DNA of 63,473 nucleotides, counting the filler, from Octopus bimaculoides (taxonomy: Eukaryota): the NCBI RefSeq assembly GCF_001194135.2. It is 8 parts of 7 records of this genome, joined end to end, with 100 filler letters (N's around TTAATTAATTAA, not from the genome) between each part and the next. Parts side by side here need not be neighbours in the genome. Positions count along the whole stretch, not along the records: positions 1 to 16,937 come from NC_069008.1; positions 17,038 to 22,480 come from NC_068991.1; positions 22,581 to 36,476 come from NC_068981.1; positions 36,577 to 40,957 come from NC_068987.1; positions 41,058 to 47,460 come from NC_068993.1; positions 47,561 to 54,772 come from NC_068988.1; positions 54,873 to 58,828 come from NC_068988.1; positions 58,929 to 63,473 come from NC_068995.1. One strand, given 5' to 3'. The position numbers and the translations under genes were made by a program. Below are positions 209-61,635 of this stretch, piece by piece. The first letter of the stretch is position 1; every line of letters begins with the position of its first letter. The notes under the pieces are model-generated. The model was given only the letters and a program-made list of their open reading frames with translations, ran no database searches and had not been told where the DNA came from.

Positions 209-3200
209 GTAAAGATTGCCTTCGTTTTGATGTTGTTGTTGTTGGTGTTGCTGTCTTTGCTGCTGCTATTACTGTAGCAGCAGCAGCAGCAGTTACTACT
301 TCCGTAGTGGATGTTCTTGTTTGTGTCACTGCTGCTTTTACTTCCATTGTTCTTTTAAACCTCCAACTACTCCTCCAGATCAAATTCTCCTCCCCACCAG
401 TAACCCCCTCTTCCTCCCTCCTTCCCTCCCTCCCTCACTCGCTCACTCTCTCTTTCTCTCTTCACAGGATGGACTTCAATGATTTCCTGAAGAACTTCTC
501 TGTTATCGAGATGTGTCACGTCGATCCATTTACAATAACCAGCTTTGAGGTCAGTCACACACAACTAACAGCATACATGCATACATATATACATACATAC
601 ATACATACATACAGGAATACCTCACTTTAAGAGGAATCTGCTTTACGAGACTCCGCGTTTACGAGTTTTATTGTTGAAACACAAGATCCAAGTCTTGAAC
701 TCCATCTTACCAGAACAAATGTCTCTGCATGTTACCAAGACATTTATAGAAAGCAACAAAGAACCTTCTTCTGAGCGAACAACTCTAGACTTGTTTGTAA
801 AAAGTCATCTACAAGTCCTTCTACGAATGCTTGTGAATCGCTGACCACGTCTACAAGTAATGGTGAGGGTGAGTCCATTGTGAGTGAAAGGGATTCAGAA
901 AACGATTATAAGAATAATTTTTTTCATCATGAAGGATCTTGACTTTCTTTTTGTTTTCCATAAAATATTTTTGACATATAGGTGCAGGAGTGGCTGTGTG
1001 GTAAGTAGCTTGCTTCCCAACCACATGGTTCTGGGTTCAGTCCCACTGCGTGGCACCATGGGCAAGTGTCTTCTACTATAGCCTCGGGCCAACTAAAGCC
1101 TTGTGAGTGGATTTGGTAGACGGAAACTGAAAGAAGCCCGTTGTATATATATGCATATATATATATATGTGTGTGTGTATATGCTTGCATGTCTGTTCCC
1201 CCCCCCCCAGCATCGTTTGACAACCGATGGTGGTGTGTTTACGTCCCCGTCACTTAGCAGTTTGGCAAAAGAGACCCATACAATAAGTACTAGGCTTACA
1301 AAGAATAAGTCCTAGGGTCGATTTGCTCGACTAAAGGTGGTGCTCCAGCATGGCCACAGTCAAATGACTGAAACAAGTAAAAGAGTAAAAGAGTATTCCG
1401 ATGTTGTTTAATTGCCATTTACTAACAAGTTTTGTGGATTTTAACGATGAAATATTTTGTCTGGGAACAAATTACAATTTATTGCTACTATGAGAAATTA
1501 TTGCTCTGTTCTATGAGTTTTTGCTTCACGAGTGGTTCCGGGAACACATTAACGCACATATCAAAGCATACCTGTAAACACACACACACACAAACTAAAT
1601 GCAAAAGAAATAGACAGAGAAAAATCCCAGCAAAGGTTGAGAAGCTCAGGACTCAAAGCAGAGACTGAAGGATATTTTAATTGCTGCCCAAGACCAAAGC
1701 CTCTCGACCAGAAATTACCAAAAACATATAAGGAAAAGAAACATAACAAGAAAGTGCAGAATATGCGGAGATGGAGAAGAAACAATGAACCATGACAGGA
1801 AAGTTGAGCAGAGATCTGCATCAAATTTCATCAAAAGCTTGGCAATACCTGCTCTGAGGTGTACGCATAACGATGCATACACACACACACACATTATTAT
1901 CCTTGTTGTTGTTGTTGTTGTTGTGGCTGTTCTTATTGTTGTTGTTGTTGTTGCATTGACAGGGAACAGAGGAGAAAACATCAGCAAGGAAATGGCACAC
2001 ATTCCGGGAAGATGGCCAATGGCTCAAGAAGATCACATCTGGTGGTAATGACAATTCTAAAGGTGAGGACAGGCCCACCTTGGGTTACTTCATTTAATGA
2101 GCCCTTCCTTGTTGTTGTTGTTGTTTAGCCTCAAGTCACTCCTGATACAACAGTCAGTCTTTATAACTGGTTTAGCCAATCATCCTCAGCAGCAGCAGCT
2201 TTTAATGTCCGTTTTCCATATTGGAATGGCTTGAGCAGTTTCATTGTTTGTTCTGGTATGATTTCTTTGGTTGAAGGTTCTTCCAAATGCCAACCAACTC
2301 CACAGAGTGGAGTTGGTTGTTTTTTATGTGGTAGCAGCATCCCTACCAATTCCGCTGTGGTAAATGGCTCCTCGTGAGTACAGCAAAACGCCTGAGGGCT
2401 TAATCCTCACTCATCTCTTTCGTAGGGTTCTGTGCCTAGAGATTGGCCCTCAACACTTCGTCCCGTGTCTTCCTGGGTTTCCCTTTTCCACAAGTGTTAC
2501 CCACTTGATCGGCACTTCCATACACAACTCTCTACATCCATACGCATGCCCATATAAACACACATATATATATATATATATATATATATATATATATATA
2601 TATACGAAAGACGAAAGCTAACGAGATCCTAAAGACCTAATAATAGTTATGTATGTGTTTTTTCGCGTTTTGTTCGAAAGGTAACCACTCCTGAAGAAGT
2701 GCCAAATGTCTAAATCCAATGGACCAGTCACTGGATAAGTTTGGCACAGAAATGTTAACATAGAGTGGTGAATAAATCGATATATCGAATTTGAAGTCTC
2801 TGTCTCTTTTGAATATGAAAATTTAAAAGTTAAAAACCTTATAATATAAATATAAACTGTGAGAACGACCCTTAAGGAATCTAGTTAATGATCTCCTAAG
2901 GTAAGTTCTTATGCTATATTGGTAACGGTTGATACATCCTCTGGGAAAATTATATATATATATATATATATAAAGAGACAGACAGACAGACAGAGATAGC
3001 ATCATCATGTTTTTTTTTAGCATGCATGTTTGTATGATTGCATGAGTCAGACAATATGTATGTGAGTGTGTACATAGATATTCATGTGAACTACTACTAC
3101 CACTATTACTACTGCTGCTGCCACTACTACTACTACTACTACTGTTGCTACGTTATTATTATGCACCTCAGATATCTACTGGAAGAATCCTCAGTACCTG

Positions 3201-6200
3201 TTGGAGATCCGTGAGGGTGAGGGTGATGTCCGGACAGTGATATCCCTGATGCATCGGCTAATGCACCAAAGTGTTAGTATCGGCGTACACCTGTACAAGG
3301 TCAGTCACTCTTACCCTAACCTTAACCCTAACCCTAACCCCTTCTTTACTGCTCCTCTCTATTCCTTTCTACTTCTTTTAACAAATATAATAAATTGTCT
3401 TTACAACAACAGCAACAACAATAATAATTATCTTTTCTATAATAGACACAAAGTCTGAAATTTGCAGAGAGGGAGATAAGCTGATCACTTTGGCCCCAGT
3501 ACTTGACTGGTACATAACGTTTTATAAGGCTGAGTGGAATTTAAACTCAGAACGGTAAAGATGGAAGAAATGCCGCTAAGCATTTTGTCCGATGTGCTAA
3601 CAGTTCTGCCAACTCAACGCCTCACAATAATTATAATAACAATATCAGTCGCTGGCACTCACAGTTTCGGATCTTAACTGATTGGAAGTGTTATCATGTA
3701 CGTCATTTTGTGTTGGCATAAAAAGATGGCCTACAGAAAATATTCTGCTTAATACCACAGACTTGCTTTTTATTTTGCCCCCTTCTCAGTCCCCTTGCAG
3801 ATAGCTTGAGTTTTGGCATCACTGCACCCACTGCTTTTCTTGTAAACTAAAACAAGGACGTTTATACCTGTGAACGGTTAACGATCCTTTTCAGGGCTCT
3901 TGTGAGAACAATAAACATGGACCTTTTCAAGGCTACTTTACGTTCAATTGTTGCACCCCCTGAAATACTCTCGTGGCTTCTCCAGGGCTTTTCACCCTGT
4001 GGTTACTACTTTATTTATGGTCTATGGGGGAAATCACTTCTTCCTCAATGTCAATGTTTGCAGCTTAGTGCAAAAGAAATATTCAAAGAGATGGACACCG
4101 AAACAAATGGAAGAACCTATTAAGACCATTGCCAAGCATTTAATACCCGAGCAACGCCGGGTAATCTTGCTAGTATATATANNNNNNNNNNNNNNNNNNN
4201 NNNNNNNNNNNNNNNNNNNNNNNNNNNNNNNNNNNNNNNNNNNNNNNNNNNNNNNNNNNNNNNNNNNNNNNNNNNNNNNNNNNNNNNNNNNNNNNNNNNN
4301 NNNNNNNNNNNNNNNNNNNNNNNNNNNNNNNNNNNNNNNNNNNNNNNNNNNNNNNNNNNNNNNNNNNNNNNNNNNNNNNNNNNNNNNNNNNNNNNNNNNN
4401 NNNNNNNNNNNNNNNNNNAGATATATATATATATATATATATATATATATATATATATGTGTGTGTGTATGTATATTTATGCATGGATTGATGTATATAT
4501 ATGTATGTGTGTGTGTGCACGTGTGTATGTGAGTGTGTAAATACATATATATGTGTGTATGATAATGGTGATGGTGGTAGTTGTGATCATGATGATGATG
4601 ATGATGACGACGATGATGACGATTTTACAATCTCCATTCGGCAGCTGAACCCTGGCTACCCGACCCCTCTCCCAGAGAAGTTTGATGAATACGCTACGCA
4701 AATGGAAACGGAAATGAAGGAACATGTCAGCCGGGAGACGACGTTTGGCGTGACTCTTGTGCCTGGTTCCTATGTCATTGTTCCCTTCATCGAGGAGAAC
4801 ACGTCTTCAGAGTTCATTCTTCGAGTCTTCACAGAGACGGCAGTTAAGATCAGGTGATTGTTATGTTATCTCTTTCTCTACCTGTCCTGTCTGTCACCTT
4901 AACACCCTTCCAACACACACACATATGTATAAACACAGCTATATACACATGCACACATACACTTGTGTGTGTATATATATAAATATATATATATATAGCA
5001 TAATATAATATAATATACACATATATAATTAATATCAGGGTGATAAAGAATTTTTAGAAATTTCTACTACCAGTGACCTAGCATGTAAAAAATTAGTCTA
5101 TAGACTATATATTATTCATATGAACACAGTGTAAATTTAAACACATAAGAGGGATCCTATGATGGATACCTCTTATGTGTTTAAATGTATTTATATATAC
5201 ATATATATATAGATATATATGTAAACATATATATATATATATATATATATATATATATATATATATATATATATATATATGTATATGTTTATATATTGGG
5301 TTGGTGCATAATTATTGTGGGTTTTTTTCAACAAATTTTATTCAACAAAAACAATAACATGTAACAAAAAAACATCTTTAAATGATTGTTCTGGAGCATA
5401 TTCACCATCCACTTCAATTAATGTTTCCCGTTTGCTTGGCAGACGGTCAGACCGTCATTTAAAGATGTTTTTGTTAAATATTGTTATTGTTTTTGTTGAG
5501 TAAAATTTGTTGAAAAAAGAAAACCGCAATAATTATGCACCAGCCCAATATATGTGCGTGTGTGTATGTATGTATTTGTATGCCTGTGCATTTGTGTGTG
5601 TGTGTGTGTGTGCATGTATGTGTATGTATGTATGTATGTATGTTTATGTATGATGCTGTCAGTATATTTCTGTACGTATCTTTACCTTCGTTTAGGAATG
5701 TCTAAATCCTTCTCTTTCAATGTCCATTGCAGGTCCCTCGATGATGTGGAGACAGTCGATCCGGTAAGGTTGCATCATTGCACTTCTTGTTTGTACACGA
5801 TAGCAATTTCATAGACCCGACCCTTGGTTTTTTTTACTATTTAAGGAACTGATTCACTTGAATACACGCTTACAAACATATATGTGTGTGTGTGTGTGTG
5901 TGTGTGTGTGTGTGTATATATATATATATATATATGCGTATATATACACACAGACACATGTATGCACACAATTGCAGCCGTATATTGCAGAGTGATGCAA
6001 TGGAATGTAAGATGTGTAACGGATCTGTTTTACTTTCCTCAAGTCTGTGCGCCGTTGTCTCACTTCTGCACCAATATTCTTTCTGTTACAGGAGACAGTT
6101 GACGAAATTGCAAAGATCAGAGAAGACCTCCTTGCCAGCATCTTTGAGAAGAACACTCCCTCATCAAAGGTGGATGCGCGCCAGTTGAGAAGGGTATTGA

Positions 6201-61230: not shown

Positions 61231-61558
61231 ATCTTCTTTACGCAAAGTGCCCAACTACAAAAATATTAACGTTTGTCTACACATATAAAGAAAGCCTACA
61301 CAGATACAAATCGTACACACGTACAAATCGTACGCACATACCAACTTAACCACCATCACCACGCCCGCATACATGTTTCCACAACATATTCTTGCTACTT
61401 AACAGCTGACTCAAGGGACACACCACTTCATCAAACTCTTAATCAGTTATCTACTTCGACTTCGTTTCGTGTTTATTCCAGTACCCACAAGCAGCGTGTG
61501 ACATTTTCATGCAATCGATGACAGTGAGCAGTCACCATATATTTATTTCGTACCTGAC

Positions 61559-61635
61559 ATCTCTGAAGAGCAAGTGTATTTAGTTAACTGTTCTTCCAGT
61601 TATCAAATACCCAATGCGAAACGGATTGGTAAGAT
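61559..61635 (+). ncRNA. Type I hammerhead ribozyme motif with intact core and weak stems I and III
   Basis: ATCT-CTGAAGA(61563-69)-long stem II (GCA/TGC, GTATTT/AAATAC, TAACTG/CAGTTA)-GAAA(61618-21)-CGGATTGG-TA-AGAT. Confidence 0.7.

Follow-up and report, generated by a model that had tools for sequence, protein, structure and literature searches.

Family D and its place in the window

The DNA analysed here (the window) is a stretch of 63,473 nucleotides, filler included, from Octopus bimaculoides (assembly GCF_001194135.2), and this text concerns its hammerhead ribozyme motifs, in particular those of family D, a non-coding tandem repeat with a unit of about 690–820 bases. The window packs together eight stretches, with pieces on at least six contigs (C28, C1, C7, C13, C8 and C15) of the 2.34-Gb genome, so the density of motifs "within 63 kb" given in a first-pass annotation carries no meaning. 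That annotation also described a three-copy family carrying GAAA and CTGATGA half-sites. These copies belong to family D, and what were taken for half-sites are parts of a complete hammerhead in a non-circularly permuted order. The three copies are as follows.

36577..36735, + strand: third copy of family D, 3′ part only, with an assembly gap upstream and core position C3 changed to T
56894..57091, + strand: copy of subfamily 1, GAAA at 56908 and CUGAUGA at 56935, with (TA)n on the flanks
59059..59683, − strand: copy of subfamily 2, with a complete type-SGC hammerhead at 59293-59221

The hammerhead blocks of family D follow the order site, GAAA, CUGAUGA, i.e. type SGC, and a test of the order against type I gave the same answer (not type I; SGC). 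Read from 5′ to 3′, the element presents a leader (GAAG...), a bridging strand, stem III with the GUC triplet, stem I, a linker of 1–3 bases, and a stem II strand with GAAA; these are followed by the second strand of stem III, the bridging partner, stem I, and CUGAUGA. In the minus-strand copy at 59059..59683 the leader is found at 59293, GUC at 59270, GAAA at 59254 and CUGAUGA at 59227, and the cut is predicted before 59267. The hammerhead of this copy (59293-59221) is the sole match to the SGC descriptor in the window, compared to a mean of 0.01 in 100 shuffles. Genome-wide, the SGC pattern returned 1,622 exact matches, a lower bound, versus none in the reversed control. The copy at 56894 has its 5′ end exactly at the predicted cut site; it lacks leader and GUC and therefore cannot be cut itself. 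Intact relatives of the copy at 36577 have the full SGC fold with a GUA site. The family is young, with copies sharing 97–100% identity.

Pairing was assessed on 82 distinct copies, of which 10 without leader were dropped and the remaining 72 sorted by rule into five subfamilies. Stem I pairs in 62–71 of the 72 copies at six positions, with C-G/U-A swaps at three of them, and the helix between leader and stem II strand in 69–71 of 71 copies at five positions, with an A-U/G-C swap. The bridging helix (9–10 bp) is paired at ten positions in 59–70 of 70 copies and shows swaps at three. All four helices are kept across the five subfamilies, and compensatory changes occur in stem I, leader:stem II and the bridging helix; stem III is conserved but nearly invariant, shows no compensatory changes, and is partly fixed by the search pattern. 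In an alignment of 34 copies 91.4% of the cells pair, versus 42–50% when the strands are slid, and 9 of 24 pairs have changed on both sides. None of 500 shuffles reached its covariation score and 15 of 500 reached its pair count, figures to be read with the caveat that relatedness inflates such scores and that the leader of one subfamily and the bridging helix of another are one column off. Core bases and the NUH triplet (GUC or GUA) are kept across the subfamilies and also in Naiads, a clade of Penelope-like elements (PLEs) discussed below. The permuted hammerhead is well supported structurally, and its catalysis is predicted.

Two extensions of this picture were considered and rejected. An extra leader:tail helix with a hairpin after the core, which would give a four-way junction, is matched by shuffled tails in 6–28% of cases, and the cognate strands pair best in 2 of 5 subfamilies. 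The SGC pattern also has 116 matches in metagenome and viral contigs; four of these have a 4-bp stem I and none a longer one, and they are attributed to chance.

Units, insertion ends and transcripts

Tandem copies of family D are spaced by 687, 706, 743 and 817 bases, with one hammerhead per unit. A spacing of 2,014 bases on contig C4 had the appearance of a tandem and was rejected as a unit, being a duplicated flank. No open reading frame (ORF) was found in the unit, and no N-terminal GIY-YIG, CxC motif or reverse transcriptase. Most copies are truncated monomers, i.e. 3′ stumps ending in (TA)n.

The 5′ ends of insertions were scored by hand in the first 100 of 574 listed matches to subfamily 1, with two internal deletions set aside. 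The ends of 24 of the 100 copies fall within −38 to +8 of the predicted cut, 16 at 0 to +8 and 8 at −38 to −1, with none at −1 to −7 (binomial p 5e-7). At the predicted cut site the number of insertion 5′ ends rises in a step, and of the four tandem dimers two start there (0 or +1).

Family D is transcribed: 1,804–2,621 reads fell on 717 bases per ~12 million records in three runs of one study, covering the whole unit and its junction. Reads crossing the unit junction are also what genomic tandems would give. Among the listed loose RNA ends at the 3′ boundary, roughly half continue into the unit as compared to 6 of 36 genomic copies, a rough comparison. Contigs of a second organism cover the family D ribozyme, and in contigs of organisms C and D some 40–50 bases outside the ribozyme are covered.

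Block order, pairing, tandem structure, (TA)n targets and transcription of family D are direct observations; cleavage, circles and a helper we infer. RNA from tandem copies would self-cleave after GUC or GUA in each unit, and the cleaved units would become unit-length templates, possibly circular by optional ligation. A PLE reverse transcriptase and endonuclease of the Naiad type would then paste these templates into (TA)n, mostly leaving short 3′ stumps.

Relation to known systems

Type-SGC hammerheads (HRIMA-1 and variants) were described from metatranscriptomes, with cleavage demonstrated, and were not found in any genome of a known organism (Eckert et al. 2023, PMC10085705). Family D resembles them in the order site, GAAA, CUGAnGA, in the linker of few bases from stem I to stem II, in a fourth helix that connects these stems at their distal ends, and in full conservation of the core. 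In family D this bridging helix joins the distal ends of both stems and covaries, its partner strand lying upstream and not downstream. Eckert et al. assume that the stem II strand directly follows CUGAnGA (PMC10085705), whereas the stem II and bridging strands of family D lie 5′ of the site block; moreover, cleavage of family D is predicted.

A close counterpart among mobile elements is provided by the Naiads (Craig et al. 2021, PMC8557442), which likewise have (TA)n targets, partial tandems and inverted copies, and whose Octopus and Acropora consensus ends have the same fold. In the supplement of that work, the consensus ends given for Naiad_Obim, Naiad_Ovul and three Naiads of Acropora share this fold, by eye, with different stem letters. 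One more Naiad consensus (File S5 of the same supplement) also reads, by eye, as the leader-SGC fold, with a stem III of 9 bp and UUC as its site. The same authors report Naiads without a canonical hammerhead, with "core" and "half core" notes only. For a 23-base motif taken from the Octopus Naiad consensus the genome has 444 matches at ≤1 mismatch versus 0 in the control. Still, Naiads encode an N-terminal GIY-YIG and a reverse transcriptase whereas family D is non-coding (PMC8557442), and family D works at most like a Naiad-dependent element. Its helper would be a PLE protein, most plausibly that of a Naiad.

Metazoan non-long-terminal-repeat (non-LTR) retrozymes, as described in a preprint (bioRxiv 10.64898/2026.07.22.740005), are similar in being non-coding tandem units with one hammerhead each, PLE-dependent and transcribed. 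Unlike family D with its SGC order they carry type I hammerheads, and the copies of family D are mostly truncated monomers whose circular RNA is hypothetical. A literature search that reached few subscription papers found no permuted hammerhead reported from an animal genome or from Naiads.

Type I families and family E

The remaining hammerhead-related features of the window, together with their GIY-YIG relics, are listed below.

2607..2939, + strand: family A, a young non-coding element in (TA)n in a calpain locus, with a type I hammerhead at 2684-2769
6640..6830, − strand: family E, a short repeat with a hammerhead-like motif at 6748-6781
38178..38312, − strand: GIY-YIG-region relic, related to family B elements
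41226..41260, − strand: family C, a minimal type I hammerhead at the 3′ end of a PLE with reverse transcriptase, zinc-finger linker and GIY-YIG
41283..41901, + strand: inverted, 5′-adjacent partial copy of family C, with a GIY-YIG C-terminus at 41378-41543
61055..61263, − strand: GIY-YIG relic of family B in inverted orientation, ~300 bases to the 5′ side of the hammerhead
61480..61720, + strand: family B, an old PLE 3′ end with a type I hammerhead at 61559-61635

A relaxed type I descriptor gave 3 matches in the window versus a mean of 0.04 in 25 dinucleotide shuffles, and a two-mismatch minimal descriptor 1 versus 0, both descriptors having been defined after the motifs had been seen. The third type I match, at 23052-23140 (+) with CTGATGA at 23056, is absent from the first-pass annotation and has weak stems. 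A loose relic descriptor returned 12 matches as compared to a mean of 8.3 in 20 shuffles, and loose relic-like matches are at chance level. Genome searches at first look yielded 756 candidates for the motif at 2684, 278 for 61559, 672 for 41226, 917 for 6749 and 1321–2839 for the three-copy family, and in each case the flanks form a repeat family. The motifs at 2684, 61559, 41226 and 6749 represent four separate high-copy families, not one decaying population. Relics had also been proposed at 33219, which is single-copy (1 candidate genome-wide), and at 42797, which belongs to a repeat family in which, by eye, 0 of 14 relatives have the GAAA-CGCG-TC junction or a CUGANGA core; both were rejected. 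A search of the window against Rfam gave no hammerhead at gathering score, and at E ≤ 5 microsatellite matches dominate, with no hammerhead among the best 150 of 299 rows; a repeat search of the window found microsatellites and N runs, nothing else.

The hammerhead motifs are real, and type I hammerheads at octopus PLE ends are known biology: an octopus PLE hammerhead, Hydra-1_oBim, is already in print (Craig et al., supplement File S2, PMC8557442). The first-pass annotation was correct on the core-intact motifs at 2684-2769 (+) and 61559-61635 (+), on the presence of GIY-YIG-type relics (two in its count; three were located, at 61055-61263 and 38178-38312 on the minus strand and at 41378-41543 on the plus strand), and on its proposal that several PLE- or retrozyme-like families have seeded motifs. 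The 61559 and 41226 families end PLE GIY-YIG ORFs. Linkage to reverse transcriptase or GIY-YIG ORFs of PLEs extends to families B and C, with none attached to A in 60 loci or to D in 135. Of the three looser relics, the one at 6749 holds as a repeat family with a hammerhead-like motif. Self-cleavage is at most a prediction for any motif in the window.

The family A hammerhead has a long stem II, a palindromic 8-nt stem III and an AUA site. Matches over the full query share 96–99% identity, core and GAAA are intact in 29 of 30 copies, and an inverted copy is often present on the 5′ side. No reverse transcriptase or GIY-YIG ORF was linked to the family in 60 loci, many flanks being assembly gaps. 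The suggestion that some motifs lie inside genes is borne out for this one, at 2684: the window copy is sense to the calpain gene, with Pfam Calpain_III exons downstream and an upstream exon at about 470-545 assigned by eye only. Calpain exons on the plus strand span 3168-8730 (Calpain_III at ~3168-3317 and ~4696-4830, a weak EF-hand at ~8670-8730), with families A and E situated between these exons or next to them.

Family B is old, with 68–85% identity, and its window hammerhead combines an intact core with damaged stems II and III. Upstream, the family continues into a GIY-YIG-type ORF in 4 of 30 loci, the domain being called by eye from translations.

In family C the hammerhead is reduced to a 2-bp stem II with a GNRA loop, a CCGG stem III and a GUC site, with an A3-U8 core. 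PLE protein matches were found in 13 of 20 loci, where the ORF order is reverse transcriptase, zinc-finger linker and C-terminal GIY-YIG with the hammerhead at the 3′ end (frames are broken in loci L073, L075 and L079); the linker motif suggests a Neptune or Nematis type. The minimal motif proposed at 41226 is present, on the minus strand, whereas its two core hits are not damage: AUGAAUA occurs in 15 of 20 copies, and exact genome copies of the core number 56 for AUGAAUA versus 0 for the canonical form. AUGAAUA is the family norm, not decay, and the 3-8 pair is kept as A-U. The natural core swap in print is U3-A8 (PMC4209133; PMC3088659), and no report of an A3-U8 core was found in a literature search of partial coverage. 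Further type I hammerheads occur in five GIY-YIG loci (L197, L198, L208, L209 and L210), with U3-A8 cores in L198 and L209 and an 8-nt palindromic stem III in L210.

Family E has CCGACGA as its usual core, a stem III cut down to ACGU and a stem I of 3 bp. The altered core is shared across the family (917 candidates), and activity is doubtful.

Families A, B and C all have a palindromic stem III and agree with the dimer model for hammerheads of PLEs (PMC4209133). Solo copies in the genome are probably silent, because cutting of the type I families likely needs a dimer formed through the palindromic stem III. The minimal type I hammerheads in PLE pseudo-LTRs (Cervera and de la Pena 2014, PMC4209133) resemble families B and C in palindromic stem III, solo truncated copies and inverted neighbours, and families A and E in architecture; the A3-U8 core of family C differs from the U3-A8 swap printed there.

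Other elements in the window

Apart from the hammerhead families, the window contains the following.

8757-9705, − strand: Mariner/Tc1-type transposase relic (PF01359)
13690-16930: ~3 kb degenerate (CGTT/CGTA)n tetranucleotide satellite
21133-21520: fold-back (inverted-repeat) element
31218-32288: fold-back element, arms 88% identical over 373 bases
35321-35394, − strand: tRNA-like match just over the Rfam gathering score (31.4 bits), possibly the head of a short interspersed nuclear element
44000-47374, − strand: broken element of the long interspersed nuclear element type, APE endonuclease at 45519-46118 and reverse transcriptase at 44003-44524
49710-50745, − strand: Mariner/Tc1-type transposase relic (PF01359)
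50783-50990: fold-back element
56287-56814, − strand: Mariner/Tc1-type transposase relic, by eye

Weighing the alternatives

The 5′ leader, and not the strand after CUGAUGA, likely supplies stem II of family D, which would split the core strand from its stem II half and break the assumption of Eckert et al. of an unbroken run from CUGAnGA into its stem II strand. The leader pairs 5–7 bases of stem II and the post-core strand can pair 3. Were family D instead a conventional type-SGC hammerhead, its stem II would be the short helix from the post-CUGAUGA strand, and the leader an inhibitory lock to be displaced. These 3 bases, after one extra A, are indeed paired in 68–71 of 72 copies, PLE hammerheads typically carry an additional base between positions 9 and 10.1 (PMC4209133), and a leader lock would account for uncut RNA. 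However, duplexes with the leader are far more stable (−4 to −10 versus about −1 kcal/mol), and in the 22 of 30 Naiad-type genome copies that could be parsed the leader pairs 6 bases, a count partly by construction, and the post-core strand just 2 contiguous ones. The conventional arrangement appears improbable. As regards the helper, that family D is mobilised by a Neptune-type PLE with C-terminal GIY-YIG, or forms the 3′ end of one, is a minor possibility that we regard as unlikely. Neptune-type ORFs are abundant in the genome; at locus L464 a Neptune-type GIY-YIG end is followed by a D-type ribozyme at a distance of ~230 bases, and at L208 a D-type ribozyme lies upstream of an ORF of this kind; and octopus Naiads are reported as long inactive (PMC8557442) while family D copies are young. 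On the other hand, the fold matches Naiad ends, and a ribozyme follows 1 of 30 copies of that GIY-YIG family, namely the query itself, on which count the link to the Neptune-type ORF was rejected. The 3′ region of a Neptune-type family (L466-L494), ~70–330 bases past the GIY-YIG end, has a conserved GAAAC ~150–200 bases before a conserved CTGATGA.

Several observations weigh against an active, Naiad-driven ribozyme, and some of them would equally suit a conserved non-catalytic signal derived from a hammerhead, e.g. a reverse-transcriptase recognition or termination structure. RNA reads show even depth over the predicted cut site and no pile-up of ends there (in unstranded libraries that also contain host read-through), the listed genomic copies continue across the site in about three quarters of cases, and metazoan PLE hammerheads cleave poorly in vitro (PMC4209133). 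A non-catalytic role is nevertheless quite improbable, as the core bases and the NUH triplet are retained across subfamilies and Naiads and the 5′ ends step up at the predicted bond. That signal is in turn a step and not a spike, because ends are still common between +9 and +32, and microhomology at TA or a stalled reverse transcriptase may contribute to it. The covariation rests on about five related subfamilies, with stem III, GUC and the GAAA strand fixed by the search pattern, and minimum-energy folds, which cannot model pseudoknots, fail to give the structure. Family D and Naiad ends share the ribozyme core region only, the Naiad link rests on a published consensus and not on a Naiad ORF in the genome, and no PLE ORF was attached to family D in 135 loci. 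The initial proposal of a single set of type I hammerheads that differ in their stage of decay, with the three-copy family as left-over half-sites, describes family B (old and damaged) and single copies such as that at 36577. It is at odds with the youth of family D and its covariation in the permuted fold, with the count of 1,622 pattern matches versus 0, with the core counts of family C, with altered cores in C and E (41226 and 6749) that are family-wide, and with the failure of 33219 and 42797, and can hardly be upheld.

In summary, it is probable that the window holds stumps of several families, two of them PLE ORF ends with type I hammerheads, together with family D, likely a self-cutting ribozyme in non-circular order. 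The fuller proposal is more tentative, with somewhat less than even chances: that a split-core, non-circularly permuted hammerhead with a leader stem II is the missing ribozyme of the Naiad clade, is active, and drives a young, highly transcribed circular-RNA retrozyme in thousands of octopus copies.

Implications

Family C offers a natural A3-U8 core open to assay. Non-circularly permuted hammerheads have so far been reported from environmental sequence only, and if the proposal for family D is true, it would provide the first non-circular permutation in an animal genome and a hammerhead arrangement not covered by the six block orders of Eckert et al. It would also mean that the core can accommodate a break between A9 and stem II. 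Standard descriptors and Rfam would then miss a large class of animal ribozymes; Naiads dominate many invertebrate genomes.

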